Source: Candidatus Tayloriibacteriota bacterium
GTDB lineage: Bacteria > Patescibacteriota > Minisyncoccia > Phycocordibacterales > PALSA-1337
Direction of reading: 5' to 3'
DNA: 64,000 bases
Assembly (NCBI GenBank): GCA_903857825.1
Contig: CAIOGI010000001.1
Coordinates: 127,410-191,409 of the forward strand
The translations under genes were made by a program, and so were the position numbers. This document shows positions 41,402-59,655 of this stretch, piece by piece (within the stretch, counting starts at the first letter, position 1; each line of letters starts with the position of its first letter). The notes under the pieces were generated by a model that was not told the origin of the DNA, searched no databases, and was given only the letters and a program-made list of their open reading frames with translations.

Positions 41402-42115
41402 ATGAATAACATATTTAATAATCATAAGGACATAGGACTATTTAATAATGGTGATTATCTTGTGTTTTCTTTTAAAAAGACAGAAAAGATTGTAACAGCC
41501 ATTTATCTTGTTACAGGTTTAATAAAAGACAATGAACCTATGAAGTGGGAATTGAGAGAGGGAAGTATGTCTATGCATTCTGTGATCATGTCTCTAAATG
41601 GTGCAGAAGTTGTTGATAAAAATAGATTGTTACAATCCTTCTATACACTGTCTATTCAGATGACTTCATTTTTGAATATCGCCATGATTTCAGGGCTTGT
41701 ATCAAATATGAATTCTTCGATTATTATTTCGGAAATTACTGCATTGATTGAATATTTAAAGAAGCATGCATCTTCAGCGACGAGCTCGGCTGGGTATATT
41801 TTGTCTGATACTTTCTTTTCTACTGACACTACGTCTGATACAGGTACTAAAGGACATGGTATTTTGTCTAAATTACCTGATTCTGCTGGAGAGCCTAAAA
41901 GTAAGGTTATGATTGTTAAGGACAAAAAGGACAGTAGAAAAAATAGTATAATAAGTATATTAAAAAAGGACTCACAACTTACGATTAAAGACTTTGTAAA
42001 AGTCATTAATGATTGTAGTGAAAAGACCATACAAAGAGAGTTAATAGACCTTGTGGAAAAGGGTATAGTAAAGAGGAGTGGAGAACGTCGTTGGAGCACA
42101 TATTCCCTAGCATAA
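41402..42115 (+). CDS. hypothetical protein with C-terminal winged-helix DNA-binding domain
   Basis: The C-terminus IISILKKDSQLTIKDFVKVINDCSEKTIQRELIDLVEKGIVKRSGERRWSTYSL is wHTH-like. Confidence 0.4.
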   Translation: MNNIFNNHKDIGLFNNGDYLVFSFKKTEKIVTAIYLVTGLIKDNEPMKWELREGSMSMHSVIMSLNGAEVVDKNRLLQSFYTLSIQMTSFLNIAMISGLVSNMNSSIIISEITALIEYLKKHASSATSSAGYILSDTFFSTDTTSDTGTKGHGILSKLPDSAGEPKSKVMIVKDKKDSRKNSIISILKKDSQLTIKDFVKVINDCSEKTIQRELIDLVEKGIVKRSGERRWSTYSLA

Positions 42116-42482: not shown

Positions 42483-44381
42483 ATGAAAAAAATATTAATC
42501 GCAGGTGTTATCGCGTTGGCTGCAGTAGTTACTGTTTCAACAGTAAACGCCGCATTCGACAATAATCTAAGTGTTGGTAGTACAGGTGCAGACGTATCTG
42601 CTCTACAGACAGTATTGATGGGAAAGGGATTTGATATTCCTTCTATCAAGTCAGGTGCAGCAATGCCAGGTTACTTTGGACAGCAAACAAAGACAGCAGT
42701 TATGGCTTACCAAGCAAGTGTAAACGTTCCTACAACAGGTTTCGTAGGACCACTTACAAGAGCTGCTCTTAATAGTGCAGGTGGAACAACAGGAACAGTA
42801 GGTGGTACAACAGGTACAATCACAGTTCCATTCCCATGTCCAGCAGGATATAATCCTCCAGCTCCTTGGGTTTGCCCAACAACAGGGGGAACAACAGGAA
42901 CAGGAGTTACAGCAGATGGAACTGATGGATCACTTTCAGTTACTACATCAAGTTTTGTTTCAACAGGTGCTTCTGTAAAAAAGGGTGAGACAAAGAATGT
43001 TGTTGCAGTAAAACTACAAGCAACAGCAGGACCAGTTAAGGTCACTCGTGTCGATGCTCACTTCTCTGTACGACCATGGTTGTTCTTCAGTACAGTTACA
43101 TTAAAGGATTCAGCAGGAAATGTTCTGGCTACAAAGCCTTTGAGTAGTATCGCTGATGTAACAGAAATTTCAATTGGGTCTGACTACCTAGTAAGATTCG
43201 AAGGTCTAAACTTTGTTGTTACTCCAGGAACAAATCCTGACCTAGTGGTGGGCGTTTCTGTACTTTCATCTACAGATAAAATTGCTACAGGTGGAACAAG
43301 CGTTACTGCCAACATTACTTCAAATTCGATCAGAACCATCAATGGTCTAGGGTTCACTGATTCAGTTGGTGGTGTTGCTTTAGCAAGTCCACTTACAACA
43401 AGTGGAGCAGGTGCTTCAACATTCACACTAACCTCAACAGGTTCAGTTGCAGATATCTCAACAAGAATTAGTCCAAATGCTCCTGCTACACAAGCTACAG
43501 AGCCTATTTCAGCTACAGTAGCTACAAATGGTGTAGAGTTAGGAGTGTTCAGCCTAAAGTCTGCAAATTCTGCTTCAATAGTTAACAATCTGAAGTTCCA
43601 AGTTAACATAAATAGTGCAGCTTCAAAGACGGCTTACTTCAGCAATGTAAGACTGATGGTTGGTTCACAGAGCTATGGCGCGCTTACATTTGATACAGCT
43701 GGTCTAGCAACATTTACAAATCTAAATTTTGCTCTTCCTCTTGATCAGTGGACAGATGTAAAGTTGGTTGCTGACATGATAGCTACAACTACAGATGTTA
43801 TAGCTTCATCAACTCTATTAGGCGCTTGGGTAGATGCTACTGATAGCACATACACAGCGGCTACTGTCGGAGGTCTAGCTATGTCAGGTGCTGCAGCAAG
43901 TAATCAGGTAAGTGTTAATACACTTTTGACAGTAAGTAGTGTATCACTAGGCTTGTCAGCTACTCCAGCTATAGTTGTTCAAGAAATCAAAGGATTATTG
44001 AATAGTAGTCAAACTACTGCAGCAAATGTTGCATATACATTCACTTTGACAAATAATAGTTCAAATAGTTTGTATGTTTCTTCAAATGTCGCAACATTGA
44101 TTAATGCTACAACAACTTCTCCAGCAGCTAATGCGTCTTCTACAATCTCAACTATTGAGCCTGTAGCAGCAGTTGCAGGAGATGCTTCAGGATATTACAT
44201 CCTTCCATCTTCAGGTGGCTCAAGAACATTCACAGTTTCTGGCATAATCCAGAAGTCTTCAGGAGGCCTACGATCTGAAAGATTAAGTATTACAAGTATC
44301 CAGTATGGAAATACAACAGCTGGTACAGGAAGTAATATTACTTCAGGTCTAGAGAAGTTAACTGTAGCAATTACTATTTAA
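42483..44381 (+). CDS. secreted surface protein with N-terminal peptidoglycan-binding domain and Thr/Ser/Gly/Ala-rich beta region
   Basis: Signal peptide MKKILIAGVIALAAVVTVSTVNA. The block LSVGSTGADVSALQTVLMGKGFDIPS...GYFGQQTKTAVMAYQASVNVPTTGFVGPLTRAAL matches the PG_binding_1 pattern. It is followed by ~500 aa of low-complexity T/S/G/A/V. Confidence 0.55.
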   Translation: MKKILIAGVIALAAVVTVSTVNAAFDNNLSVGSTGADVSALQTVLMGKGFDIPSIKSGAAMPGYFGQQTKTAVMAYQASVNVPTTGFVGPLTRAALNSAGGTTGTVGGTTGTITVPFPCPAGYNPPAPWVCPTTGGTTGTGVTADGTDGSLSVTTSSFVSTGASVKKGETKNVVAVKLQATAGPVKVTRVDAHFSVRPWLFFSTVTLKDSAGNVLATKPLSSIADVTEISIGSDYLVRFEGLNFVVTPGTNPDLVVGVSVLSSTDKIATGGTSVTANITSNSIRTINGLGFTDSVGGVALASPLTTSGAGASTFTLTSTGSVADISTRISPNAPATQATEPISATVATNGVELGVFSLKSANSASIVNNLKFQVNINSAASKTAYFSNVRLMVGSQSYGALTFDTAGLATFTNLNFALPLDQWTDVKLVADMIATTTDVIASSTLLGAWVDATDSTYTAATVGGLAMSGAAASNQVSVNTLLTVSSVSLGLSATPAIVVQEIKGLLNSSQTTAANVAYTFTLTNNSSNSLYVSSNVATLINATTTSPAANASSTISTIEPVAAVAGDASGYYILPSSGGSRTFTVSGIIQKSSGGLRSERLSITSIQYGNTTAGTGSNITSGLEKLTVAITI

Positions 44382-44414
44382 TAGTAGGTATTGTATAGTT
44401 GTTTCTCGTTCACT

Positions 44415-44473
44415 CCCCTCAACAGGTTAAAACGTTGAACAAAATACCACTCGGAAACGGGTGGTTTTTTGTT
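44415..44473 (+). repeat. array repeat unit R1 (conserved block + intrinsic terminator CCACUCGGAAACGGGUGG-U6)
   Basis: cccctcaacaggttaaaacgttgaacaaaataccactcggaaacgggtggttttttgtt. Confidence 0.75.
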
Positions 44474-44630
44474 TATATAATTTTGTTTACTTTTTAACTT
44501 TTATATATTTGAATATTGTTTTCTGCGAAAATCCATATAATCATGCAATATTTATCCACAGATTCTTAAGAAGTAATAAATTTTTTGTGATTTTTACTAT
44601 TTACACAAAAATATCAATTGATAATATGGG
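44474..44630 (+). promoter_or_regulatory. array upstream leader type 1 (copy 1)
   Basis: tatataattttgtttactttttaacttttatatatttgaatattgttttctgcgaaaatccatataatcatgcaatatttatccacagattcttaagaagtaataaattttttgtgatttttactatttacacaaaaatatcaattgataatat. It is near-identical to 48634-48792 and diverged at 46040-46197. It contains TTATCCACA and TTTACA-16-TAATAT. Confidence 0.5.
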
Positions 44631-44633
44631 TTG

Positions 44634-45245
44634 ATGGATAAAAAAGAGATAAACATTTTTCTAAAAAGTTTTGAATTACAATATTCTAGAACACTAGTCA
44701 TTATTGATTTTGCAAATGTAGAAAAATGGAAAGATAATTTGGGTTGGAAAATTGGTATACAAGAACTTGCTAGACTTGTAAAAAACTTTACAAAAGGGGA
44801 TAAGAAATTACGAAGATTTTACTATGGTTCTGATTATGGACCCAATGATAAGTCAGATTATATGAATGACTGGTCATATAATATCCTTGAAAGGGCAAAA
44901 TCAAATGGATTTGAAGTAATAACCAAAAGGGTAAAATACATACACTCAACGCTGTCATTAAATGGGTTTATAAAAAAATGTGATCTCGATGTAGAAATGA
45001 CGGTTGATATACTGAGTATGAAAGATGCTTTTGATCAGATCTTAATATTTTCTGGAGATGGGGATATAACATATGCACTACAATATCTAAAAAATAGTTT
45101 CAATAAAAAGATCTATGTATTTGGAGCCAGGAATAGTATAGGAAGAGAAATAATTGATGCCCTTAACCAGGGGATAATTTGTAAGGTTATATACATTGAA
45201 GATTTCCAATACCGATTAAATATGGACAGATTCAGATATAAGTAA
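44634..45245 (+). CDS. NYN/LabA-like (PIN-fold) nuclease-domain protein, array paralog 1
   Basis: ORF 44631..45245 (TTG start in the track; ATG at 44634). Motifs IIDFANV..., CDLDVEMTVD, ILIFSGDGDITYALQYL and IYVFGARNS are the NYN signature blocks. Confidence 0.6.
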   Translation: MDKKEINIFLKSFELQYSRTLVIIDFANVEKWKDNLGWKIGIQELARLVKNFTKGDKKLRRFYYGSDYGPNDKSDYMNDWSYNILERAKSNGFEVITKRVKYIHSTLSLNGFIKKCDLDVEMTVDILSMKDAFDQILIFSGDGDITYALQYLKNSFNKKIYVFGARNSIGREIIDALNQGIICKVIYIEDFQYRLNMDRFRYK

Positions 45246-45360
45246 ATCAAAAATCTCCCCAAACGGGGAGATTTCGAATAAAATCCGGTGTAAGTTATTG
45301 CTTACTTTTACATAATATCATACGTCAAAATTTCATGCAAACAAAAAATTTAATATCTAT

Positions 45361-45420
45361 CCCTCTAACCAGGTTAAAACGTTGAACAAAATACCACTCG
45401 GAAACGGGTGGTTTTTTGTT
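45361..45420 (+). repeat. array repeat unit R2 (terminator-containing)
   Basis: ccctctaaccaggttaaaacgttgaacaaaataccactcggaaacgggtggttttttgtt. Preceded by aatttaatatctat, which is shared with copy R6. Confidence 0.75.
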
Positions 45421-45546
45421 TATATAATTTTATTTACTTTTCCCCAATCTTGTTTCGCAACTATGTTAAAAGACCATTTTCTTTAGAATATCTTAATAAC
45501 TGTTTGCTAGAGTGTTTGGATTATTGGAATAATTATTAAAGAGAAT
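45421..45546 (+). promoter_or_regulatory. array upstream leader type 2 (copy 1)
   Basis: tatataattttatttacttttccccaatcttgtttcgcaactatgttaaaagaccattttctttagaatatcttaataactgtttgctagagtg... It is shared with 47797-47920 and 49571-49691. Confidence 0.5.
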
Positions 45547-45957
45547 ATGATTATAAAAAGTTTTATCAAGGATTTTATTAAATGGTTATCAATCAAAAGA
45601 AAAATAGATGATTTTAAACATACCCCACCTTTATTTAATGAAGGTGAAATTTGGTGGTGTAGTATTGGTGAGAATGTGGGAGTAGAAATCAGTGGGAAAG
45701 GTGATCACTTTAGAAGACCTGTTCTTGTTGTAAGAAAACTTGATCAGTATTCATTTATAGGGGTACCCATCACTAGTCAAAATAAAGTAGGAACATGGTA
45801 TGCACATATAAAAGTTAAAAATAATGATAATTATGTTATATTATCCCAGATTAGACATATAGATTATAGGAGAATCGATAAAATCCTTTTTACTCTGGAT
45901 ATTTTGACATTTAATTATATTAGGACTGAAGTAGTAAATTTGATTAAGGGAGTATAA
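45547..45957 (+). CDS. MazF/PemK-like endoribonuclease toxin (no adjacent antitoxin ORF)
   Basis: GEIWWCSIGENVGVEISGKGDHFRRPVLVVRKLDQYSFIGVPITSQ matches the PemK/MazF pattern (G.I..........G.E..K.RP.LV......V..VP.TS). Confidence 0.55.
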   Translation: MIIKSFIKDFIKWLSIKRKIDDFKHTPPLFNEGEIWWCSIGENVGVEISGKGDHFRRPVLVVRKLDQYSFIGVPITSQNKVGTWYAHIKVKNNDNYVILSQIRHIDYRRIDKILFTLDILTFNYIRTEVVNLIKGV

Positions 45958-46039
45958 TAAATCACCCGTCTCCAAAGACGGGTGGACGTGGCTCATGCCA
46001 AATATGTATATATACTATCAGACACCAAAACTCTGTCAA

Positions 46040-46197
46040 GCAAAAATATATAATTTTGTTTACTTTTAACTTTTATATATAAATTCTATTTTTGAAGATA
46101 ATTCACATAATCGTGCCACTGTTATCCACAGATTCTTAAGAAGTAATAAATTTTTTGTAGTTCTAGCTCTTTACTTGAAATTCATAGTTGATAAAAT
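46040..46197 (+). promoter_or_regulatory. array upstream leader type 1 (diverged copy 2)
   Basis: ttttgtttacttttaacttttatatataaattctatttttgaagataattcacataatcgtgccactgttatccacagattcttaagaagtaataaattttttgtag... It contains TTTACT-16-TAAAAT. Confidence 0.45.
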
Positions 46198-46743
46198 ATG
46201 CGAATGAAGATGATTAAAACAGAAAACAATTTTGCATTTATAGATAGTCAGAATTTAAATCTTGGCATACAGAAGCTTGGTTGGAAATTGGACTATAAAA
46301 GATTTAGGATATACCTCAAAGAAAAATATCATGTAGAAAGAGCTTATATGTTTCTTGGTTTTGTATTGTTGAATCAAGATCTCTACGATAGATTACAAAA
46401 ATCTGGTTTTATACTTAAGTTTAAACCTACAATTCCAGATGCAAACGGTGAAATTAAAGGTAACGTTGATGCTGATATAGTTTTAAATACTTTGATTGAA
46501 TTAAGTGATTATGATAAGGCAGTTATAGTATCTAGCGATGGGGATTTTTATTCTCTAATATCGTATTTGTATGGTAAAGATAAATTAGAAATAGTACTGA
46601 GTCCAAATATAGATGAATGCTCAAGTCTTTTAAAACAGACAGCGAAAGAGAAAATCAATTTTATGAATGATTTGAAAGATAAACTTGAGTATAAAAGAAA
46701 AACACCGCTTAAGGACGAAACCTTAAGAAGTGCTTTTCTCTAA
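46198..46743 (+). CDS. NYN/LabA-like nuclease-domain protein, array paralog 2
   Basis: AFIDSQNLNLG, GNVDADIVLNTL, AVIVSSDGDFYSLISYL, and the C-terminal LEIVLSPNIDECSSLLKQ. Confidence 0.6.
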   Translation: MRMKMIKTENNFAFIDSQNLNLGIQKLGWKLDYKRFRIYLKEKYHVERAYMFLGFVLLNQDLYDRLQKSGFILKFKPTIPDANGEIKGNVDADIVLNTLIELSDYDKAVIVSSDGDFYSLISYLYGKDKLEIVLSPNIDECSSLLKQTAKEKINFMNDLKDKLEYKRKTPLKDETLRSAFL

Positions 46744-46785
46744 CGATACACCAATAGTGTAGCAGGTTATATATTCAGAAGTCAA

Positions 46786-46832
46786 GGTTAACGTTGAACA
46801 AAATACCACTCGGAAACGGGTGGTTTTTTGTT
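46786..46832 (+). repeat. array repeat unit R3 (5'-shortened, terminator intact)
   Basis: ggttaacgttgaacaaaataccactcggaaacgggtggttttttgtt. Confidence 0.7.
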
Positions 46833-46877
46833 GCTTGTACATCTTTTTGTTAAAATGATACAATATAATTATTAATT

Positions 46878-47432
46878 ATGAACACAAAAATAAATCAAAA
46901 ATTTACTACTGAGGAATTGATTCTATATATACTAAATAAATTAGAACCAGAGAAAAGTGATAAAATCCGCTTGAATAAACTAGCTTTTTTTGTTGAATTT
47001 GCTTTTTTTCATAGATTTAATCAATTACTTAGTAATGCAGAATATGCTGGTATTGATCTTGGTCCTGTAATTAATAATTATGATGATATTCTTAAAAATA
47101 TGCAGAAAATGGATCTTATTAGAATAGATGGTTATAAAATAAGGCCTTTAGTATCTCCATCCGTTACTCTCTCTTCAGAACAAAAGGTTTTTATTGATAA
47201 TATAATTGAACGATATTCAACATTATCAAAAGAAGTCCTGATAGGTATTTCTCATTTGACAGATGCTTATAAAATTACCACTAAAGATGAAAAGGTAATG
47301 GGTAATAAAATAGACAAAAGACTAGCCTTGCTTGAAACATTTCTATTGGATGATGAGACTGAAAACTTGGTTAATGAAGATGAATTACCAATTATAGATC
47401 GTTCAAAACTTGTTCCTTATGCCATTAGATAA
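46878..47432 (+). CDS. DUF4065 / Panacea-domain protein (SocA/PanA-like antitoxin candidate)
   Basis: TTEELILYILNKLEPEKSDKIRLNKLAFFVEFAFFHRFNQLL matches the Panacea/DUF4065 N-terminal helix pattern (..KLQKLLYFA..). It overlaps the downstream RelE-like ORF. Confidence 0.45.
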   Translation: MNTKINQKFTTEELILYILNKLEPEKSDKIRLNKLAFFVEFAFFHRFNQLLSNAEYAGIDLGPVINNYDDILKNMQKMDLIRIDGYKIRPLVSPSVTLSSEQKVFIDNIIERYSTLSKEVLIGISHLTDAYKITTKDEKVMGNKIDKRLALLETFLLDDETENLVNEDELPIIDRSKLVPYAIR

Positions 47433-47733
47433 TTCTTACAAAATCTTTTTTGAAAGAAGATTTCAAAAAATTCTAGATGGCTTGCCAGAAGATATTAGAG
47501 GTGCTTTTCAGGCAAAAATGAGTTATTTTCAAGGCAATCCAAATCATCCAAGTTTAAATACTAAAACATTAACAGTTAGTTCAAAAAGATTAAAAGAATT
47601 AGGCGTTGATCAAATATATGAATTTTATATAAATCGAAAAGATTACAGATGTATTTTTTACGTGATTCATGATACAAAAGAAATTATTATTGCATATATT
47701 GGTAATCACACACAAGTAAAAAATAAGTTTTAA
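47419..47733 (+). CDS. RelE/ParE-superfamily toxin-like protein
   Basis: ORF 47410..47733 (start at 47410 or 47419). The C-terminus QIYEFYINRKDYRCIFYVIHDTKEIIIAYIGNHTQ fits the RelE/YafQ-type beta-sheet pattern. Confidence 0.5.
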   Translation: MPLDNSYKIFFERRFQKILDGLPEDIRGAFQAKMSYFQGNPNHPSLNTKTLTVSSKRLKELGVDQIYEFYINRKDYRCIFYVIHDTKEIIIAYIGNHTQVKNKF

Positions 47734-47736
47734 TTC

Positions 47737-47796
47737 CCCCCCTCAACAGGTTAAAACGTTGAACAAAACACCACTCGGAAACGGGTGGTTTTTTGT
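47737..47796 (+). repeat. array repeat unit R4
   Basis: cccctcaacaggttaaaacgttgaacaaaacaccactcggaaacgggtggttttttgtt. Confidence 0.75.
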
Positions 47797-47920
47797 TTAT
47801 ATAATTTTATTTACTTTTCCCCAATCTTGTTTCGCAAATATGTAAAAAGACCATTTTCTTTATATTTTCTTAATAACTGTTTGCTAGAGTGTCAAAATTA
47901 TTAAGATAATAAGAAAAAAT
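47797..47920 (+). promoter_or_regulatory. array upstream leader type 2 (copy 2)
   Basis: tatataattttatttacttttccccaatcttgtttcgcaaatatgtaaaaagaccattttctttatattttcttaataactgtttgctagagtgtcaaaattattaagataataagaaaaaat. Confidence 0.5.
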
Positions 47921-48499
47921 ATGTTAGAGAAAATACAAACAGAAGTAAATTATGCATTTATTGATAGCCAAAATCTAAATCTAGGCGTTAGAGATCAGGG
48001 CTGGACTTTAGATTTTAAGAGATTTCACTTGTATCTCAAGGATAAATTTCATGTAGAAAAAGCCTTTCTATTTATTGGTTACTTTCCTGGAAATGAAAAA
48101 CTGTATACATCTTTGCAGAGTCATGGATATATATGTGTATTTAAACCGTCAATGTTATTACCAGATAAAAAAGTAAAAGGTAATGTTGACGCAGAATTGG
48201 TTTTGCATACAATGATTCAATTTAATGCATTTAGTAAAGCAATTATTGTGACAGGCGATGGTGATTTTTACTGTTTGATCGAATATTTACTTAGCTAACA
48301 AAAGTTTAAAAAAGTGCTTATACCTAATAAGAATAGGTATTCCGGATTATTGAAAAAATTAAGTACCCAAGATAACAATATTCTTGATTTCATCACAGAT
48401 AAAAAAGCAAAATTACAATATGTTTCGGTCTCGATTGAGGCGGATAATGAAAAAGGCTCTCAGTGGGACGTAACCCAAAAAGAACCTCTTTCATCGTGA
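47921..48499 (+). pseudogene. NYN/LabA-like paralog 3 interrupted by a single in-frame TAA (48296-48298)
   Basis: ORFs 47921..48298 and 48314..48499 are in the same frame. The upstream part (AFIDSQNLNLG...GNVDAELVL...IIVTGDGDFYCLIEYLLS*) and the downstream part (QKFKKVLIPNKNRYSGLLKKLSTQ...) align colinearly with paralog 2 (ISYLYGKDKLEIVLSPNIDECSSLLKQ). Confidence 0.5.
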
Positions 48500-48585
48500 T
48501 GTATAAATCGTATCATAAGGCGATATTTGATGCAATAGATGCGGTTACTTTAGCGGACTTTTTAGTGTTCCTCCATACCTATTAG

Positions 48586-48633
48586 CCTAAAACGTTGAAC
48601 AAAACACCACTCGGAAACGGGTAGTTTTTTGTT
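48586..48633 (+). repeat. array repeat unit R5 (terminator stem weakened: gggtag instead of gggtgg)
   Basis: cctaaaacgttgaacaaaacaccactcggaaacgggtagttttttgtt. Confidence 0.7.
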
Positions 48634-48792
48634 TATATAATTTATTTACTTTTTAACTTATATATATTTGAATATTGTTTTCTGCAAAAATCCATATAAT
48701 CATGCAATATTTATCCACAGATTCTTAAGAAGTAATAAATTTTTTGTGATTTTTACTATTTACACAAAAATATCAATTGATAATATAGATGT
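48634..48792 (+). promoter_or_regulatory. array upstream leader type 1 (copy 3)
   Basis: Near-identical to 44474-44630 (...gaatattgttttctgcaaaaatccatataatcatgcaatatttatccacagattcttaagaagtaataaattttttgtgatttttactatttacacaaaaatatcaattgataatat). Confidence 0.5.
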
Positions 48793-49410
48793 ATGGAAGA
48801 AATCACGAAAAAGCGATATGCATTTATTGATGTTCAGAATACTGAAGGTACTGTAAATCAGTTACTAGATTTTTCTATTGATTGGAGTAAAACATATCAA
48901 TATTTAAAAGAACATTGGAAGTGTAATGAGATCTTTTTCTATTCAGGAATTCAAAAGAGTAATGTCAATAAGATTAAAGAATATGAAAGTCTTTTGATGT
49001 TAGGTTATAAAATGAGAGTGAAAACATATTCAATATATAAGAATCAAGATACTATTGTTAAAATTAACTGTAATAAATGTAATAATGAGATAAGCCATAA
49101 AATCGATAATGGGACAAGATGGAAATCAAACTGTGACGTAGAGTTTTCTGTGGACGTAGAAAATAATATAAGAAATGGATCAGAATTCCTATTTTTTACT
49201 GGTGATGGTGATTTTGAATATCTAATTAGAGATGTGGTCAATAAAGGAATCAAGGTTTACATAATTTCAAGTGCAAAAAAGACATACATAAGCAATAGAT
49301 ATTATATTTCTCGTTTTTCAACAAAATTGAGGGATCTAATCGCTGAAAAAAGAGGAATGGTTGATTTCCTAGATATTAATGATTGGAAGAATAGAATTTA
49401 TCGAAGTTAA
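48793..49410 (+). CDS. NYN/LabA-like nuclease-domain protein, array paralog 4 (with Cys-rich insert)
   Basis: YAFIDVQNTEG, NCDVEFSVDVEN, FLFFTGDGDFEYLIRDV, and an inserted INCNKCNNEISHKIDNGTRWKSNCD (CxxC...C) segment. Confidence 0.55.
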   Translation: MEEITKKRYAFIDVQNTEGTVNQLLDFSIDWSKTYQYLKEHWKCNEIFFYSGIQKSNVNKIKEYESLLMLGYKMRVKTYSIYKNQDTIVKINCNKCNNEISHKIDNGTRWKSNCDVEFSVDVENNIRNGSEFLFFTGDGDFEYLIRDVVNKGIKVYIISSAKKTYISNRYYISRFSTKLRDLIAEKRGMVDFLDINDWKNRIYRS

Positions 49411-49423
49411 TAAATAGATAAAG

Positions 49424-49448
49424 GAAAACGCCATACAGGCTGGCGTTT
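49424..49448 (+). terminator. intrinsic terminator
   Basis: aacgccatacaggctggcgttttc forms a stem aacgcca/tggcgtt followed by a U-run. Confidence 0.5.
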
Positions 49449-49510
49449 TCTAATGATTCTATTAGTTTATCAGATATATCCATGCTGTCAAGACAAATTT
49501 AATATCTATC

Positions 49511-49570
49511 CCTCTAACCAGGTTAAAAAGTTGAACAAAACACCACTCGGAAACGGGTGGTTTTTTGTTT
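49511..49570 (+). repeat. array repeat unit R6
   Basis: ccctctaaccaggttaaaaagttgaacaaaacaccactcggaaacgggtggttttttgtt. Confidence 0.75.
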
Positions 49571-49691
49571 ATATAATTTTGTTTACTTTTCCCCAATCTT
49601 GTTTCGCAACTATGTAAAAAGACCATTTTCTTTATATTTTCTTAATAACTGTTTGTTAGAGTGTCAAAATTATTAAGATAATAAGAAAAAT
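49571..49691 (+). promoter_or_regulatory. array upstream leader type 2 (copy 3)
   Basis: tatataattttgtttacttttccccaatcttgtttcgcaactatgtaaaaagaccattttctttatattttcttaataactgtttgttagagtgtcaaaattattaagataataagaaaaat. Confidence 0.5.
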
Positions 49692-50306
49692 ATGGAAGAA
49701 GAAATATTAAAAGTAGAAAAAGACACTATGCAGATAGAAGAAAAGACCCGAATAAATATAGCCTATATTGACGCGACAAATTTAGATAAAGCATTAAGAA
49801 ATCAGCTGGGATGGAAAATTGATTATAAAAGATTTAGAGTGTGGCTTAAGGAAAAATATGATGTAAGGCGGGCATATATTTTTATCGGGCTTATCCCTAA
49901 GTACAAAGATCTTTATACTTTTCTTCAGTCGTGCGGCTTTGAATTAGAGTTTAAGGACGTAATATATGCAGGTGGAATAGCAAAGGGTAATTGTGATTCT
50001 GACTTGTTGATGAAAGCTAGTAGCGATTATTATATTGGAGGTTTAAACAAAGCAGTAATAGTTGCAAGTGATGGCGACTATGCTCCATTAGTTAAAGTCC
50101 TGCTTGGTGGTAATAGACTTGAGGTTATACTTTCTCCAAGCACTGTTGATAAATGTTCAATCCTTCTTAAAAGAACCAACGCACCGATTACATATATAAA
50201 TGATCAACGTTCAATACTCGAATTAAAGGATAATAGCGAGATATTGACCTCCTTAAATGAAAAAGCCCCCGATGTGGACAAAACCACATTAGGGTCTTCT
50301 TCGTAG
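49692..50306 (+). CDS. NYN/LabA-like nuclease-domain protein, array paralog 5
   Basis: IAYIDATNLDKAL, GNCDSDLLMKAS, AVIVASDGDYAPLVKVLL, and the C-terminal LEVILSPSTVDKCSILLKR. Confidence 0.55.
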   Translation: MEEEILKVEKDTMQIEEKTRINIAYIDATNLDKALRNQLGWKIDYKRFRVWLKEKYDVRRAYIFIGLIPKYKDLYTFLQSCGFELEFKDVIYAGGIAKGNCDSDLLMKASSDYYIGGLNKAVIVASDGDYAPLVKVLLGGNRLEVILSPSTVDKCSILLKRTNAPITYINDQRSILELKDNSEILTSLNEKAPDVDKTTLGSSS

Positions 50307-50423
50307 TGATATTTATATACTAACAAAACCATTTTTTCTTGTCAAATTTTTATGGATTCTATGAAGTTTCGTGTGGTGGATAACTAATGAAAATGTCATC
50401 CCCTACCAAAGTAGAAATGTAAT

Positions 50424-50454
50424 CCCTCTAACCTGTTTAAAAAGTTTTTGTTTT
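50424..50454 (+). repeat. degenerate partial copy of the array repeat unit (array boundary)
   Basis: ccctctaacctgtttaaaaagtttttgtttt. It retains the 5' block but loses the hairpin. Confidence 0.5.
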
Positions 50455-50486
50455 ATTTATTATTATCTATATGATATTATATAATC

Positions 50487-50645
50487 ATGGTAAATCCTTT
50501 TGATAAAACATTTTTTAAATTTGTAATTGGTTTCTCAATCATTTTAAGTATGAGCTTCACTATCTTATTTTTTGTTAATAAATATGAGGCATCTATTGGA
50601 GAGGGCATGACAGCATCAAAAAGCTTCACTCCAATAAAAAAATAA
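50487..50645 (+). CDS. putative 52-aa small membrane protein
   Basis: MVNPFDKTFFKFVIGFSIILSMSFTILFFVNKYEASIGEGMTASKSFTPIKK has one TM helix. A clean terminator lies downstream at 50672-50700. It is not in the ORF track because it is under 60 aa. Confidence 0.3.
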   Translation: MVNPFDKTFFKFVIGFSIILSMSFTILFFVNKYEASIGEGMTASKSFTPIKK

Positions 50646-50671
50646 TTTTTTCCTTGTTAAAGATAAAGAAT

Positions 50672-50700
50672 AAGCCGTAAAATATAATACGGTTTTTCTT
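50672..50700 (+). terminator. intrinsic terminator
   Basis: agccgtaaaatataatacggtttttctttt forms a stem ccgta/tacgg followed by a U-run. Confidence 0.5.
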
Positions 50701-50803
50701 TTTAATTTGTTTATGTTCTAATGCTGTTTTTTGCGATTTTCTTTATAATTTCTTAATAACTTTTTTGTACTATCTTCATATTATTATTTAATCAAAACTA
50801 ATT

Positions 50804-53599
50804 ATGAAGAAAAAATATATTTTTAGTGTTTATTTGGCAATTATAATGGCTCTAGGGGTTATGAGTCCGCAGTATTTGTATGCAGAGACTTATGTTAGAG
50901 CTGGGGATCTTGATAATGGTGGAGTGTGGAATAAGGCTGGCAGTCCTTATATAATAGAGGATGATATTAGGGTCACAAATGGTAATGTTCTAACTATTGA
51001 GTCAGGAGTTAGTGTAATCTCAGTATCATCTAGTGATTATAATTCAGCACCGTATGCGATTACATTTGATGGTGGTGATCTGAATATCAGTGGTACGGCA
51101 GACGAGCCAGTCAATATTCAAGGTCTATATGGTATTTACTTTGTACATTCAAATTCGACTATTGAAAATGCGATATTTGATAATTCTTTTTTGAATTTTA
51201 ATCAAAGCACCAGCACAATATTAAATTCAATTATAAAAAATGCAATGTGGGGCATATTTGCTAAGGGAAGTCGTATTGCCATAGAAAATAGTAAAATATT
51301 AAATAATACATACGGTATAAGCTCAAACAAATATGTTGTAGGTCCAGTATTGATGTATCAGCAGGACAAGGGTTTACCAGATTCCTCTAATGGTATTGGT
51401 GGCATCGGAAATGCATTGAGTGATATGAATGAAATCCTCATCGATACAACTCAAAATGGAATTTCAATAAGGAATTCCGAAATAGTTGGAAATACAAAAT
51501 ACGGAATATACAATAAAACGTTAAATCCGGTGTCTGCGGAGAATAATTGGTGGGGCGCAGAAACAGGTCCGAAAACAAGCACATCGAGTAATGGAGATAT
51601 GGTATATGGTCTCGTAAATTATTCTCCTTGGAAAGAAAAACTTGTTGAAGAAGTGCCGTGTTGTTCTAATGTTCTATTTATCCCCGGCATAGAAGCAAGT
51701 AGACTTTACAGAGATGTCAAACAGTACTTAGGCACAACAACTGAACAAATGTGGGAGCCTTATGGAAACTCTCACGTAAAAGATCTTTCTTTAAGTGAGA
51801 CTGGGTATAGTATTGATAAAACAGTATACACAAAAGATATTCTGGATTCTGCATATGACTTAAAAGATATATATATGAGCTTTGTCACCATGATGAATGG
51901 TGTGGTTGCGGACAAAACAATAAATCAATGGCTAGCCTACCCTTATGATTGGCGTATGAGTACTGAAGATATTGCTCTTGGTTTGACCAAACTTTCTACA
52001 ACAACGGTATCTTTAATAGAATCTGTAGAGAGTCTCGCAAAGAGTTCTAAAACTGGAAAAATAATAATTATTGCTCATAGTAATGGAGGCCTGGTTGCGA
52101 AATCTTTAATCAAGGCACTTGAAGATAAGGGTGAATCAGGATTAGTAGAAAAAATAATAAATATAGCTGTTCCAGAACTCGGTACACCGAAGGCGATTCT
52201 CAGTATGCTTCATGGTTATGACCAGTCCATAGCGGGAGGAATTATCGCTTCAGAAAAGACTGCTAGAAACTTATCACAAAATATGCTCGGTGCTTATGGG
52301 CTATTGCCATCAAGAAAATTCTTTGAAATAAATCCAATAAAAGTAATTTCAGATAATTATAGTGGTTCTAAGTTATTGGCATCAACCTATGATGCAATGA
52401 AAAGCTTTTTACTCAACGGTCCATTTTCAATGAAAAAGTCTAAGGATACTAATATTCCATTATCTCTAAATGAATTTATGCTTAGTAAAGCAGACTCACT
52501 TCATTCTTCAATAGACTATTGGAAACCTGCTAGTACCACCAGAACTTTGTCATTATTTGGATGGGGGCTTCCGACTTCTGATGGAGTGTTGTATGAAAAA
52601 GATGACCATTGTAAGTATGATACAGATTGTGCTGTGTCATATATTCCAACAGTTACAAAGAGGGGAGATGGAACGGTGCTTGTTGATAGTAATTCAAATA
52701 TATCAGATAGATCATTGTTTATAAATCTAAAATTATTTAATGATGATACAAAAAATGAAGTAAATCACGCAGATGTATTGGAGGCTCCTCCTGCACTTGA
52801 TTTTGTAAAGAAAGAAATATCAAATACTCAAAAAAATAATGATTATGGTAAATACATAACTGATACAGAGCCGATCGATACAGAACGATGGCTAACGCTG
52901 AAGATATTTTCACCTGTAGATATTGATGTTTATGATAAAGAGGGGAATCATACGGGTAGAATAGAAAACAATAATATTAACTTAAAGCCTTATGAAAGTA
53001 AGATACCAAACAGTTATTATAATGAATTTAGTGGTAAAAAAATTGTAATATTACCTTATGACAATGATTATCAAATGGTTTTAAAAGGAAATGATGCTGG
53101 GGCTGTAATAATAAAAGCTGAAGTAGAACAGTATGAAACAGTGATCGCATCCACTACATTTTCGGAAATGCCTGTTACTCCATTAACAAATATTGAACTA
53201 ATAATTTCAACATCTACAGATTCATTTTCTACATCATCTGTAATGAATATGGATATTGATGGCGATGGGATAACCGACTTTGTGAATCATTCAAATGAAT
53301 ATTTTGGCTCGACTACTCTGGGTGCAATCGCTGATTATGTTACTTATATAGAGTCTATTAGAAAAGCAATTCTTTCGCTTGGATTAAATCCAAAAGAAGA
53401 AAAAAGATGGTTAGATAAAATCGATAAGATCAATAAAGACTTTGAAAAGAAAAATTATAAAAAAGCACATAAATTAATTAAAAAGTTATCAAAAGAAAAG
53501 TTCAATAAAAGGAATCTTACTGAAGCACAAAGACAGGCTATTCTTGACTTTTTTGATAAAACACTAGATGAATTCGAAATGGTGGTTAGGAATAAATAG
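50804..53599 (+). CDS. secreted beta-helix protein fused to an alpha/beta-hydrolase (lipase/PGAP1-like) domain
   Basis: Signal peptide MKKKYIFSVYLAIIMALGVMSPQYLYA. The N-terminal ~280 aa have parallel beta-helix repeat character (NSKILNNTYGISSN, GISIRNSEIVGNTKYGIYN). The middle has a nucleophile elbow IIIAHSNGGLVAKSLI ((G/A)HSxG). The C-terminus is a Lys-rich coiled-coil. Confidence 0.55.
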   Translation: MKKKYIFSVYLAIIMALGVMSPQYLYAETYVRAGDLDNGGVWNKAGSPYIIEDDIRVTNGNVLTIESGVSVISVSSSDYNSAPYAITFDGGDLNISGTADEPVNIQGLYGIYFVHSNSTIENAIFDNSFLNFNQSTSTILNSIIKNAMWGIFAKGSRIAIENSKILNNTYGISSNKYVVGPVLMYQQDKGLPDSSNGIGGIGNALSDMNEILIDTTQNGISIRNSEIVGNTKYGIYNKTLNPVSAENNWWGAETGPKTSTSSNGDMVYGLVNYSPWKEKLVEEVPCCSNVLFIPGIEASRLYRDVKQYLGTTTEQMWEPYGNSHVKDLSLSETGYSIDKTVYTKDILDSAYDLKDIYMSFVTMMNGVVADKTINQWLAYPYDWRMSTEDIALGLTKLSTTTVSLIESVESLAKSSKTGKIIIIAHSNGGLVAKSLIKALEDKGESGLVEKIINIAVPELGTPKAILSMLHGYDQSIAGGIIASEKTARNLSQNMLGAYGLLPSRKFFEINPIKVISDNYSGSKLLASTYDAMKSFLLNGPFSMKKSKDTNIPLSLNEFMLSKADSLHSSIDYWKPASTTRTLSLFGWGLPTSDGVLYEKDDHCKYDTDCAVSYIPTVTKRGDGTVLVDSNSNISDRSLFINLKLFNDDTKNEVNHADVLEAPPALDFVKKEISNTQKNNDYGKYITDTEPIDTERWLTLKIFSPVDIDVYDKEGNHTGRIENNNINLKPYESKIPNSYYNEFSGKKIVILPYDNDYQMVLKGNDAGAVIIKAEVEQYETVIASTTFSEMPVTPLTNIELIISTSTDSFSTSSVMNMDIDGDGITDFVNHSNEYFGSTTLGAIADYVTYIESIRKAILSLGLNPKEEKRWLDKIDKINKDFEKKNYKKAHKLIKKLSKEKFNKRNLTEAQRQAILDFFDKTLDEFEMVVRNK

Positions 53600-56531: not shown

Positions 56532-57373
56532 ACTCACTACACAGAAATATGTTAAAAAACTTCAATTTTAAACGGCAATAATTACGCTTTAATAGAGTGT
56601 AGAGATTGTCCGTCAAAAAGACGGTTTTTTTGTAAAAAATCTGGGGTAAAACCTAGATAACTGAACGACTGACACATTGACAATTTAATACCTCAACAAT
56701 TTCAACAATCAGGAGGTTGTTGGGGAAAAAAGGTAATACTAGGATGTGTATATATTATGAGGGTTTTTTCGAATATATGCATTGAATAGTAAGTTGTAAG
56801 TTGTAGACAAATAATTGTGGTTTTTAGATTTCCTAATGGGAAATTTAAGAGTATATGGTGGATGCCTTGGCTTCTAAGAAGCGATGAAGGACGTGGCGTG
56901 GCGACGATATGTTTCGGGGAGGTGCCTAGCAACCTTTGATCCGAAAATTTCCGAATGAGGAAACTCTCTGACTTCGAGTCAGAATTAACACGCTTGACGT
57001 GTTAATGCACACCCAGGGAAGTAAAACATTTCAGTACCTGGAGGAATAGAGACAAATATGTATTTCGTGAGTAGCGGCGAGCGAAAGCGAAAGAGCCCAA
57101 ACTCAACCTTAATCGTATTATGGGACGCAGTTTATTCTGTTGTCTTGTAATGCGATTAAGGTTGGGGGTTATAAGGTGAGAACGTACCATTTATGGTAGG
57201 AAAGTTACAAAATTTTTTGATAGAAGAATCTGCTGGAAAGCAGAGCCCCAGAAGGTGATAGCCCTGTAGTCGAAATCAAAAAATCTTTCTTGTTCTTATT
57301 CTTGAGTACCTCGAGACACGAATGGCTCGGGGGAATTTGCCGGAACTAACCGGTAAGGCTAAATATTCTAGAA

Positions 57374-57413
<40 letters not shown>

Positions 57414-57986
57414 CAGCCCGGTAAGGGCGATGAAATAGACCTGAAACCATATATTTACAAGGAGTAGAAGAGGTAGCAATACCTCGACTGCGTGCCTATT
57501 GAAGAATGAGCCAACGAGTTGATGCATGTTGCAGGCTAAGCGCGAGAGCGTGGAGCCATAGGGAAACCGAGTGTGAATAGCGCGTTAGTAGTATGCATCA
57601 GACCCGAAGCCAGATGAGCTTGCCTTGAGCAGGTTGAAGTTTGTCGAAAGACAGATGGAGGACCGAACGCTAAAGTTGTGCAATTCTTTGCGATGACTTG
57701 AGGTAAGGAGTGATAAGCTAATCGAATCTGGTAATAGCTGGTTCTCTCCGAAATAGCTTTTGGGCTAGCGTTGAACGTACCCCTCTGGGGTAGAGCACTG
57801 GAAGGTCTCGACAGGTCGAAAGATCACGAGACCTATCAAACTCCGAATACAGAGGATTAACTATTCAGCAGTTAGACGGTGGGGGCTAAGCTCCATACGT
57901 CAAAAAGGAAACAGCCTAGATCTCCATTTAAGGTCCCTAAATTCATGTTAAGTACGCTTAAGGTGGTTGAATTTCTCAAACAATGA

Positions 57987-58018
<32 letters not shown>

Positions 58019-58828
58019 GAAAGCGTAACAGCTCACTCATCGAGAGATTCTGCGCCGCAGATAATCGGGGTTAAACATGATACCGAAACTGAGGATGTGC
58101 TTTTGCTTCGGCAAGAGTACGTGGTAGGAGAGTATTCTAATCTGCGTTGAAGGCAAAGGCGTGAGCCATGCTGGAGCGTTTAGAAGTAAGAATGTTGGCA
58201 CAAGTAACCACAATGCGGGTGAGAATCCCGCACGCCGAAAGAACAAGGTTTCCTTGGCTATGAAAATCAGCCAAGGGTTAGTCGGGCCTAAGGGGATGGT
58301 GAAAACCGCACCCGATGGACACATGGTTAATATTCCATGACTTTTATGTAGAGTGACGGAGTGACGAAGTGCAGTATATGACGCTCATTATTGGATTTGA
58401 GTGCATGCTATAGGGGATTGACACAGGAAAATCCGTGTCGTGTCTTTAATGACAATTCCGAGTAGAGTGTAAAGGTAGGGGTTCGCCCTTATTTATGTCG
58501 TAAAGCGCGCTTCCGAGAAAAACTTCTAAACTTATCTATATAGAAACCGTACCGCAAACCGACACAGGTGTTCAGGTCGAGTAGACCAAGGCGAACGAGT
58601 GAGAGGTCTCCAAGGAACTCGGCAAAAAATCAGCCGTAACTTCGGAATAAGGCTTGCCCTTCGCAAGAAGGGCCGCAGCTAAAGTATCTCTGGCAACTGT
58701 TTATCAAAAACACAGCTCCCTGCGAACTCGTAAGAGGATGTATAGGGGGTGACACTTGACCAATGCCCGAAGGTCAAATATCGACGTTGTATTGTCGCAA
58801 GATGATATGGTGATTGATATAAGCCCGG

Positions 58829-58863
<35 letters not shown>

Positions 58864-59086
58864 TCTGAGTTTGTCTTCGGATGAACTCAGACGGACTAGG
58901 ACTGTTATATAGCAAAAGTGATTCGTTTTTAGATAAATTAGATTAAAATATTACATAAACAAGCTACCTGCATATGAGTAATCATATGCTGAGTCCATTG
59001 CAGTTAAATAGAGACCAACACTGCACATCCGATCTCCGTAAGGAAAGGATGAAGATAGAGTCCATCTGTGCTTAAAGGAATAGATG
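58864..59086 (+). mobile_element. ORF-less ~223-nt insertion in 23S at the conserved AAGGU|AGCGAAAUU junction (E. coli ~1917 region); candidate small intron/IVS
   Basis: The exon sequence ...ggtcctaaggt resumes as agcgaaattccttgtcaggtaagttctgac after 223 nt. The insert contains no ORF. Confidence 0.5.
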
Positions 59087-59655
59087 AGCGAAATTCCTTG
59101 TCAGGTAAGTTCTGACGCGCACGAATAGTGTAATGTCTGGAGAACTGTCTCGGAGACTTGCTCGGTGAAAATACAATATCGGTGAAGATGCCGATTACCT
59201 ACAGTTAGACGAAAAGACCCTAGAAGCTTTACTGCAACTTGATTTTGACTATATGTTTTTTATGCGTAGCGTAGATGGGAGGATTTGAAGTTTTCTTTTC
59301 GGAGAAGATGGATCCGCAAGTGAAATACCATTCTTAACAAATATATATTCTAACCTCGACGGCAAAAACGACGAGAGACAGAATCTGGCGGGCAGTTTTA
59401 GTGGGGCGCTATCCTCCTAAAAAGTAACGGAGGAGTTTATTAAGGTCAGCTAGGCGCGAATGGAAACCGTGCCGATAGTGTATAGGCATAAGCTGGCTTG
59501 ACTGTGAGACGTACTTGTCAAACAGATGCGAAAGCAGAACTAAGTGAACCGACCTTACGCATTAGACGCGGGGGAAGATTATCGGATAAAAGCTACTCTA
59601 GGGATAACAGGCTGGTTGTGCCTAAGAGTTCATATCGACGGCACAGTTCGGCACC

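Follow-up and report, generated by a model that had tools for sequence, protein, structure and literature searches.

What keeps a row of orphan ribonuclease (RNase) genes in check, and how such a row came to stand in a core chromosome, are the questions raised by a short segment of Candidatus Tayloriibacteriota DNA. The array segment (44415-50454) lies in a 64-kb window, the whole stretch of the genome that was analysed here (assembly GCA_903857825.1, contig CAIOGI010000001.1, positions 127,410 to 191,409). According to the list of open reading frames (ORFs) and the sequence, it carries eight plus-strand genes between 44.6 and 50.3 kb. They form seven cassettes, not eight as stated in the original prediction. 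Five genes code for LabA-like NYN nucleases (NYN1 to NYN5, of which NYN3 is a pseudogene), one for a solitary PemK/MazF and two for a Panacea-RelE type II toxin-antitoxin pair. Positions are collected in Table 1, and L numbers denote loci of other genomes. In silico, a small convergent antisense unit stands behind every orphan nuclease gene, a feature missed by the original prediction. The reading favoured here, with slightly better than even confidence, is that the array would be an accreted island of RNase toxin modules guarded by RNA antitoxins and reshuffled via repeats, without a dedicated integrase.

Predicted antisense RNAs behind the nuclease genes

Promoters and terminators in this study are consensus predictions (sigma-70-type consensus scan). 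The best minus-strand promoters of the scan are located in the 3' flanks of MazF, NYN4 and NYN5; the sites behind NYN1 and NYN2 score 9/12. Each antisense promoter is followed after 10-40 nt by a hairpin, which acts as a predicted terminator on the minus strand only. The resulting cis-antisense RNAs would be about 45-65 nt long and overlap the mRNA at its 3' end, stop codon included. The predicted RNAs of 54-71 nt that were folded form hairpins at their end, with z-scores between -4.4 and -8.0. When both strands of the 64 kb were searched under strict settings for promoters with a hairpin terminator behind them, seven units emerged, four of which lie in the 6.1-kb array on the minus strand. 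Shuffling the array with its dinucleotides preserved gave an expectation of 0.055 bins against five observed, and five was reached by none of 200 shuffles. In six of the seven cassettes, an RNase-type gene is faced by a predicted small convergent RNA gene, the one of NYN3 having a degenerate promoter. The seventh is the Panacea-RelE pair, for which sequence and promoter scan revealed no antisense unit in the 3' flank. Because a protein antitoxin is present and the antisense unit is absent, this pair serves as an internal control.

The NYN element was compared in a set of NYN2-like genes from nine lineages: the window and eight others, two at the same chromosomal hotspot and six between unrelated core genes. 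The shared hairpin reads GAAAAGCAC-CG-CTTAAGG-ACGAAA-CCTTAAG-AA-GTGCTTTTC. In the alignment, 87.5% of the cells are paired and double-sided changes are present in 11 of the 16 pairs; this covariation was reached in 0 of 500 shuffles. The place of the stop codon relative to the hairpin varies: 5' arm (L029-L032), 3' arm (L027) or 16 nt downstream of it (NYN2, L018, L020 and L023). This variable position indicates that the constraint acts on the nucleic acid and not on the protein. Sequences downstream of the hairpin are otherwise unalignable. A minus-strand TTGAC(A/T/G)-16-18-TAnnnT was present in 10 of 11 genes, eight of these with TGn, and the -10 ends 15-19 nt from the helix. The sole exception is the pseudogene NYN3 with its degenerate promoter. 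A covariance model (CM) of the hairpin was run on 297 kb of window and loci and matched only NYN 3' ends, including an orphan relic in L018. L027, which was outside the training set, scored 51.8 bits (E 7e-11). NYN1 and NYN4 carry a third hairpin type with only two or three examples; the NYN4 hairpin together with TGTCAA is also found in L013 and L014.

For PemK, six genes were compared: the window MazF, two in L018 and one each in L033, L036 and L038. Their element starts with a variable, pairing-preserving hairpin directly after the stop codon. Past the hairpin, four of the six genes have a conserved segment, GACGTGGCnnATGCCAAAT (as GACGTGGCnnATGCC and UUUGGCAUnnGCCACGUCC). A minus-strand -10 and -35 was present in all six, with TGTCAA as -35 in four.

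A protein antitoxin was sought beside these genes. The ORF list and the sequence offered no plausible antitoxin ORF adjoining the window MazF, and the 24-codon and antisense ORFs behind it were rejected as candidates, as they are not conserved. In the three homologs looked up, no antitoxin gene stands beside PemK: the gene is solitary in L033 and L038 and has no recognisable antitoxin neighbour in L036. A 54-aa ORF after PemK-a of L018 (L018 2046-2214) was also rejected, since it ends in the C-terminal hairpin of an NYN gene (CM 64.9 bits). This relic behind PemK-a indicates that PemK replaced most of an NYN gene in the same cassette frame of L018. A viral origin of the modules was dismissed as well: IMG/VR contained neither relatives of NYN2 nor the NYN 3' element nor a true copy of the terminator unit described below, and the four pattern matches lie within phage coding sequence.

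Terminator units, promoter regions and the growth of the array

The cassettes are joined by a repeated unit of ~60 nt. Six intact copies and a partial boundary copy were confirmed, with pairwise identities of 77-98%. The 28-nt core of the unit has six matches against 0.00 expected and occurs nowhere else in the 64 kb. The original prediction placed a unit after each cassette. This holds for five cassettes; NYN5 ends in the partial copy, and the MazF cassette has no unit. Behind the RelE-fold toxin gene, the unit begins 2 nt past the stop codon. The unit ends in an intrinsic terminator, as had been proposed, with a GC-rich hairpin, a U-run and compensatory changes in the stem. Terminator function is supported by the stem variants of different species (CCACTCGGAAACGGGTGG, CCACTTAGAAAAGTGG, CCACCGAAAGGTGG), which preserve pairing.

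The unit was searched in one genome per GTDB species and in metagenomes of the Joint Genome Institute (JGI). The full element, CTCC..CAACAGGTTAAAAAGTTGAAC-AAAA-hairpin-T-run, is single-copy in several related Patescibacteria and always located directly 3' of the gene for a PG-binding surface protein (L002 4022, L003 82, L010 5946, L011 7751, L016 4240, L018 1491, L020 7860). The first copy of the array belongs to this upstream core gene. By sequence and position, the unit is hence identified as the native terminator of the clade at a conserved hotspot and not as the cassette-specific invention it was taken for. A generic terminator family spread over the genome was rejected: within the window the unit occurs only in the array, and in the loci of relatives only at the syntenic site. 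Of 12 matches to an exact unit 24-mer in GTDB genomes, seven are unrelated terminators without the left part of the unit. The Rfam scan of the window at gathering thresholds found only the 23S and 5S rRNAs, a scan of 44300-50900 with Rfam 15 at E<=1 found nothing, and the window has no tRNA or tmRNA genes. As these scans were empty for the region, the unit is not the end of a known RNA.

Upstream of the genes, two types of conserved regions were taken for transcribed leaders. They are promoters, as the -10 of type 1 ends 6 nt before the ATG. The same spacing is present upstream of NYN2-like genes in L018, L020, L030 and L031. Given this spacing, the NYN mRNAs behind type 1 are probably leaderless. 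One of the two types precedes six cassettes, as proposed, whereas the Panacea cassette has neither. The order is 1, 2, 1, other, 2, 1, 2 and does not alternate as had been claimed. Every cassette has its own promoter, so the view of self-contained cassettes stands. Identities are 75-95% among type 1 and 85-97% among type 2 regions. Comparison with other lineages identifies type 1 as the native upstream region of the NYN2-like family and type 2 as that of the PemK family at unrelated sites (L033, L036). In the array, type 2 is also located upstream of NYN3 and NYN5. Elsewhere in the window it precedes the LCAT-like gene of the core (50736) and, on the minus strand at 20970, an ORF6N gene. In L018, each promoter type likewise serves two unrelated genes. 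Since one promoter type serves unrelated genes here and in L018, promoter modules and coding sequences have recombined.

Two motifs were noted in these regions. The perfect DnaA-box consensus TTATCCACA occurs five times in the window (42181, 44552, 46122, 48711 and, on the minus strand, 60438) against 0.85 expected. Three copies are located about 40 nt upstream of the type 1 -35, and similar boxes lie beside NYN/PemK modules in L013, L014, L018, L027, L029 and L036. The box may be a regulator site, possibly that of DnaA. The motif TTTCTTTATnnnTTCTTAAT has nine matches at <=2 mismatches against 0.55 expected and marks type 2 promoter regions, the core LCAT-like gene and the ORF6N gene (45478, 47855, 49627, 50738 and 21015 on the minus strand). 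It is probably the operator of a shared regulator. A conserved DeoR-type helix-turn-helix gene (41402-42115) is a candidate for this regulator.

The contrast between diverged paralogs and near-identical regulatory modules was borne out by measurement. The NYN coding sequences share 53-62% of nucleotides and 23-51% of amino acids, the regulatory modules 75-98% of nucleotides. The pair of intergenic regions that brackets NYN1 is >90% identical to the pair bracketing NYN4, and the two proteins share 30% of amino acids. The genes next in line, MazF and NYN5, are unrelated despite their matching intergenic frames. Simple tandem duplication is excluded, in agreement with the original prediction, because near-identical regulatory modules surround genes that are unrelated or only 23-51% identical.

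How the cassettes moved is indicated by the junctions. Short direct repeats of the target border single insertions, namely 17 nt (GGTGGTTTTTTGTTTTG) around the NYN gene of L020 and 13 nt at the argS site described below. In L018, the four units carried by cassettes have one hairpin variant in common, and the resident native unit has another. Together with the NYN relic behind PemK-a of L018, these observations support recombination through the repeats. The direct repeats and the common variant would also fit an integron-like array of the CALIN type (cluster of attC sites lacking integron-integrases). The unit would then be an attC-like site, the recombinase would be encoded elsewhere and the toxin-antitoxin genes interleaved in the array would stabilise it as in sedentary integrons. 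One near-identical site type recurs at cassette 3' ends right after stop codons, as expected for such an array, and the unit is unusually conserved across diverged lineages: its single-stranded part of ~25 nt, CAACAGGTTAAAAAGTTGAACAAAA, and the hairpin are about 85-95% conserved, with flanking proteins being 37-70% identical. By inspection, however, the unit is a short terminator hairpin with perfect pairing; the imperfect palindrome R''-L''/L'-R' is missing, and the RYYYAAC/GTTRRRY boxes are not conserved. Rfam matched nothing in the region, and the junction between MazF and NYN2 lacks any unit. Integron cassettes are mostly promoterless, and here every cassette has a promoter. No integrase, transposase or recombinase was encoded among the 30 window ORFs scanned outside the array. 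The junction sites also differ between lineages, being inside the 3' arm and T-run of the terminator in L020 and 45 nt downstream in L013 and L014. An integron is considered improbable. Variable junctions and the lack of a recombinase among the scanned ORFs favour recombination driven by homology or microhomology over an integron-type process.

The junction between MazF and NYN2 (45958-46060) appears to have lost about 75 nt by a clean deletion, with AAAT-rich microhomologies at its ends. Transcription of MazF may thus continue into the promoter region of NYN2.

A set of varied nuclease cassettes linked by conserved sequences also recalls the polymorphic effector cassettes suggested initially. 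In a polymorphic-toxin store, standalone toxins would recombine into a secreted full-length toxin gene, and the neighbouring LCAT-like protein has a faint match to a CdiA C-terminal tRNase (E 0.009). The cassettes consist of complete genes, though, with promoters and start codons of their own, and their 5' coding parts have no homology in common that would allow a swap into a toxin gene upstream. The window has no full-length toxin gene with a 3' end homologous to cassette 5' ends, no immunity genes and no secretion or trafficking domains. This explanation is hardly credible.

Gene content and chromosomal setting

All five NYN genes match PF01936 above the gathering score (E 4e-17 to 8e-10). 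The acidic residues D25, D119 and D142-G-D144 and the residue N28 (D..N / D / DGD) are invariant in the five paralogs. A profile of the five proteins retrieved the LabA-like structure 2qip from the PDB (E 1.4e-16). The AlphaFold2 (AF2) model of NYN2 has a predicted local distance difference test score (pLDDT) of 88.6, and its top PDB match in Foldseek was also 2qip, with template modelling (TM) scores of 0.73/0.79. By profile and acidic residues, NYN1-5 are predicted nucleases. The insert in NYN4 has a C-x2-C...H...C pattern (CNKCNNEISHKIDNGTRWKSNC, 49060-49140) that is kept in the 73%-identical homolog of L013 and suggests a zinc knuckle inside the NYN fold. In NYN3, homology resumes in frame beyond the TAA. 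A truncated product of 125 aa was called in independent assemblies, which makes a real nonsense mutation of the stop.

The 107-aa partner of the Panacea protein has only weak, sub-threshold Pfam matches to ParE/HigB. Its AF2 model, based on 31 homologs, has a pLDDT of 91.5, and the top Foldseek matches were RelE (1wmi), YoeB and YafQ, with TM scores of 0.6-0.7 normalised to the solved chains. It has 92 homologs; all source-named ones are from Patescibacteria. The genes overlap in the order antitoxin-then-toxin, as in type II pairs. The domain calls of the original prediction (five NYN, PemK, Panacea and RelE), the Cys-rich insert of NYN4 and the NYN3 stop were all upheld by the profile hidden Markov models of Pfam, the structural models and the comparisons. 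NCBIfam has no named family for the array proteins beyond known domains. In PADLOC, a generic NYN model (E 1e-3 to 3e-7) and HEC-09 were matched only partially and weakly, and no validated defence system was matched.

The window is core chromosome of a low-GC genome of the Patescibacteria, or candidate phyla radiation (CPR). Core genes code for NusG, ThyA, SHMT, ArgRS, MetRS, RecO, RecA, FtsK, EF-P, SSB, S6, L10, L7/L12 and the 23S and 5S rRNAs. The array is flanked by RecA, FtsK, EF-P and SSB upstream and by L10 and L7/L12 downstream. An LCAT-like lipase gene follows the small membrane ORF at the right flank. An assembly artefact is ruled out by the identical gene order in at least four independent assemblies.

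The PG-binding gene is syntenic in L002, L003, L010, L015, L016, L020 and L021 and partial at the contig end in L014 and L018. In L002, L010, L011, L015 and L016 the site is empty, with the membrane ORF directly after the unit. Other relatives carry cargo: one AAA ATPase in L014, an NYN4-like gene in L013, which belongs to the same species as L014 by identical flanks, and one NYN2-like gene in L020/L021. The locus L018 (GCA_031384385.1) holds two PemK, ORF6N, an AAA_14/DUF4143 ATPase and an NYN gene together with five species-specific copies of the unit. The metagenome scan added four further syntenic loci, and no second long array was present in the JGI metagenomes. As the site is empty or differently filled in related Patescibacteria, it is a chromosomal hotspot. 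Judged by synteny, the array is the largest instance seen of this variable hotspot, which extends from the terminator of the PG-binding gene to the small membrane ORF. Elsewhere, single NYN copies are inserted between unrelated core genes of other lineages.

These distributions bear on an ordinary family expansion, in which a housekeeping or regulatory RNA-processing NYN would have multiplied by local duplication with gene conversion of the intergenic regions, and the convergent promoters would serve antisense regulation or insulation. Gene neighbourhoods have associated LabA-like NYN proteins with RNA processing (PMC5499597). The family is very abundant in Patescibacteria, with at least 8000 matches, and NYN2, NYN3 and NYN5 are related at 37-51% amino acid identity. 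A housekeeping role is difficult to reconcile with the patchy distribution, including five empty relatives and others with different cargo, with single copies between unrelated core genes and with a pseudogene in the array. Local duplication does not account for non-homologous MazF and NYN5 in the same intergenic frame or for the co-residence of NYN with known toxin families. The GC content of the cassettes is 26-35%, that of the neighbouring core gene 41%. Overall, a family expansion appears unlikely.

Table 1. Genes, promoter regions, terminator units and predicted antisense units of the array and its flanks (positions in the window)
Feature	Position	Strand	Evidence and remarks
PG_binding_1 surface-protein gene, conserved left anchor	42483-44381	+	Pfam PF01471; synteny in relatives
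Unit copy 1, native terminator region of PG-binding gene	44415-44474	+	CAACAGGTTAAAACGTTGAACAAAA + hairpin CCACTCGGAAACGGGTGG + T-run; single-copy at same site in relatives
Type 1 promoter region before NYN1	44475-44633	+	Promoter scan; TTATCCACA box at 44552; TTTACA-16-TAATAT, -10 ends 6 nt before ATG
NYN1, LabA-like NYN nuclease gene	44634-45245	+	PF01936, E 4e-17; acidic residues kept
Predicted antisense unit of NYN1	45238-45341	-	Promoter TTTGCA-18-TATTAT (TGn) 45341-45312; hairpin terminator 45275-45250; z -5.0
Unit copy 2	45362-45421	+	Repeat and terminator scan
Type 2 promoter region before MazF	45422-45546	+	TTTCTTTAT/TTTCTTAAT repeats; homologous upstream of PemK genes in L033, L036
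PemK/MazF-like toxin gene, solitary	45547-45957	+	PF02452, E 1e-8
Predicted antisense unit of MazF	45950-46039	-	Promoter TTGACA-16-TAGTAT (TGn) 46039-46012; conserved GACGTGGCnnATGCC; hairpin 45984-45963
Type 1 promoter region before NYN2, diverged, no preceding unit	46045-46203	+	TTATCCACA at 46122; TTTACT-16-TAAAAT 6 nt before ATG 46204
NYN2 gene	46204-46743	+	PF01936, E 9e-13; belongs to widespread 165-181-aa Patescibacteria NYN family
Predicted antisense unit of NYN2	46688-46785	-	Promoter TTGACT-18-TACACT 46785-46756; covarying hairpin overlapping end of coding sequence; CM 84.6 bits; z -8.0
Unit copy 3, left part truncated	46774-46833	+	Repeat and terminator scan
Promoter of Panacea gene	46836-46864	+	Promoter scan; TGTACA-17-TACAAT
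SocA/Panacea-domain antitoxin gene	46878-47432	+	PF13274, E 3e-11; NF047745 weak
RelE-fold toxin gene, 107 aa	47410-47733	+	Overlaps Panacea gene at 47410-47432
Unit copy 4	47739-47798	+	Repeat and terminator scan
Type 2 promoter region before NYN3	47799-47920	+	
NYN3 pseudogene	47921-48499	+	In-frame TAA at 48296-48298
NYN3 3' hairpin element	48440-48545	-	Degenerate antisense promoter TTGCAT-17-TACGAT, 7/12; CM 63.9 bits; z -5.8
Unit copy 5	48575-48634	+	Repeat search; G-to-A change in stem
Type 1 promoter region before NYN4	48635-48792	+	95% identical to NYN1 copy; TTATCCACA at 48711
NYN4 gene, with CCHC insert	48793-49410	+	Pfam; 73%-identical homolog in L013 at same hotspot
Predicted antisense unit of NYN4	49405-49491	-	Promoter TTGACA-16-TAAACT (TGn) 49491-49464; hairpin 49450-49424
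Unit copy 6	49511-49570	+	Repeat and terminator scan
Type 2 promoter region before NYN5	49571-49691	+	97% identical to NYN3 copy
NYN5 gene	49692-50306	+	Pfam NYN; acidic residues
Predicted antisense unit of NYN5	50250-50345	-	Promoter TTGACA-17-TAGTAT (TGn) 50345-50317; covarying hairpin within end of coding sequence; CM 65.7 bits
Partial unit, left part only, hairpin deleted; right array boundary	50422-50446	+	Repeat search
Membrane ORF (NPFDxTFFKF), conserved, 50-60 aa, here 52 aa; right anchor	50487-50645	+	Directly after unit in empty-site relatives

Other features were noted outside the array. A second cassette hotspot adjoins the 3' end of argS (18709-20445), whose product shares 64% identity with the ArgRS of L033. 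In the window, this site (20449-21110, minus strand) holds the ORF6N gene with its type 2 promoter, flanked by a 13-nt direct repeat, CTACATCCTCTCC, which is the complement of the terminal codons of argS. The same site in L033 (4001-4500) holds a PemK gene with its antisense element. A mini-array in L036 (2549-4453) consists of a PemK gene, an unassigned 284-aa gene and a second PemK gene; it stands beside a PG_binding/PKD surface gene and EF-G, with ORF6N nearby. A RhuM-family gene of the window (12293-13348; PF13310, E 2e-104) lies among core genes of nucleotide metabolism and may be another small accessory insertion. The spacer of ~2.6 kb between 23S (56835-59717) and 5S (62312-62420) contains two ORFs for LAGLIDADG homing endonucleases (59824-60405 and 61318-61800).

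Proposed RNA-guarded toxin modules and known systems

In the favoured reading, each orphan-nuclease cassette would be a two-part module of toxin and RNA antitoxin, laid out like the type I systems with 3' overlap. The plus-strand mRNA would start at the ATG, cross the antisense region and end at the terminator unit. A short, labile antisense RNA would pair with the 3' end of the RNase mRNA and cause decay or block expression. Loss of the locus, stress or phage takeover would disturb transcription; the labile RNA would then disappear first and the RNase would be made. The terminators between the cassettes would ensure that each leaderless gene is translated only from its own 5'-terminal AUG, with read-through being blocked. 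The array would grow and be reshuffled through the shared terminator and promoter repeats, by excision and re-integration of circles, exchange with transformed DNA or gene conversion, and coding sequences would be replaced between conserved flanks. Such a model would explain a MazF without MazE, complete modules of 0.7-1 kb and selfish, patchy insertions.

Type I systems with 3'-overlapping antisense RNA are known from Bacillus subtilis (txpA/RatA, bsrG/SR4), and type I nuclease toxins are represented by SymE/SymR and RalR/RalA. The array modules resemble txpA/RatA and bsrG/SR4 in the convergent genes of toxin and small RNA, with an RNA that is complementary to the 3' end of the toxin mRNA (here predicted). 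They also share the lack of a protein antitoxin and the small, autonomous and patchily distributed modules of type I. In contrast to the membrane peptides of ~30-60 aa, the toxins would be nucleases of NYN or MazF fold with 130-205 aa; the candidates of the array are soluble domains of 136-205 aa and not small hydrophobic peptides. Also different is the NYN-linked RNA, which is known here from prediction and amounts essentially to a single extended and conserved hairpin located where the coding sequence ends.

In type III ToxIN systems, an RNase toxin is neutralised by a small RNA, which consists of tandem repeats, is encoded upstream of the toxin gene and is separated from it by a terminator. 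The conserved primary sequence of the PemK-linked RNA would fit a protein-binding RNA. A direct, type III-like binding of RNA and toxin is possible and most plausible for this RNA. In contrast to type III, no tandem repeats are located upstream, the repeats being dispersed cassette modules, and the RNA gene is convergent and downstream. Type II systems are represented by the PemK/MazF (PF02452) and Panacea (PF13274) domains and by the overlap of the Panacea gene with a RelE-fold toxin gene. Unlike in MazEF/PemIK, the MazF homolog and its relatives have no MazE-like neighbour and carry a conserved 3' antisense element instead.

Sedentary integrons and CALINs are similar in their unidirectional cassettes of ~1 kb that mostly end in the same repeat, their interleaved toxin-antitoxin genes and a content that varies at a fixed locus. 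They differ in that IntI, attI or Pc were not found in the window and the repeat has no attC-type structure by inspection. Furthermore, the cassettes of the array are not promoterless but have own -35/-10 elements and mostly a terminator, the repeat is the native terminator of a core gene and the junctions are variable.

The NYN proteins share fold and acidic active-site residues with the LabA-like NYN family (NYN.COG1432, 2qip). A review of the PIN-like superfamily lists the function of bacterial NYN.COG1432 as unassigned (PMC5499597). In the literature searched, an antisense RNA, a toxin role or cassette behaviour are not attached to the family. The same searches revealed no description of NYN or solitary MazF with conserved convergent antisense RNAs and none of an integrase-less CPR cassette array built on a native terminator. 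Known before are the domains, chromosomal islets rich in toxin-antitoxin genes and integron arrays. As far as these searches reach, the pairing of LabA-like NYN and solitary MazF with predicted convergent RNAs and the terminator-based CPR cassette array appear to be new. A tentative step further, with the balance of probability against it, would be to assign LabA-like NYN RNases and solitary MazF to a new class of toxin-antitoxin systems with a convergent antisense or toxin-binding RNA as antitoxin. Its mobile mini-cassettes of ~0.7-1 kb would accrete at terminator "landing pads", integron-like without an integrase.

Several points weigh against RNA-guarded modules. The AAA ATPase of L014 is not a nuclease and faces the same antisense promoter as the NYN4-like gene of L013; the antisense promoter may not be toxin-specific. 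In the PemK-linked RNA, the primary sequence is conserved between lineages, which pure antisense action does not need. Unlike the terminators nearby, which are not conserved, the unit is conserved beyond the needs of a terminator, and it might serve as an RNA element, as a binding site for a protein or as a site of recombination. Only 64 kb of the genome were seen, and a recombinase may act in trans. Antisense RNAs, toxicity, RNase activity and physiological role are deduced from sequence; comparative conservation supports the promoters and terminators. Classical type I toxins are small membrane peptides, and the candidates are nucleases of 130-200 aa. LabA-like NYN proteins are without a demonstrated toxin role, and HEC-09, the one NYN candidate for defence that was tested, did not protect against phages (bioRxiv 10.1101/2024.01.29.577857).

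Cassette boundaries, promoters and predicted RNAs are described here in enough detail for synthesis and direct testing in E. coli. If the proposal of RNA-guarded modules is true, the very large and functionally unassigned LabA-like NYN family would gain a testable role, that of an RNase toxin kept in check by an antitoxin RNA. The systems with RNA antitoxins would be extended by two folds of nuclease toxins, and "orphan" MazF genes would be explained. For the organism, the locus shows how a tiny episymbiotic CPR genome stores and shuffles accessory genes at a fixed hotspot via shared terminator and promoter modules.

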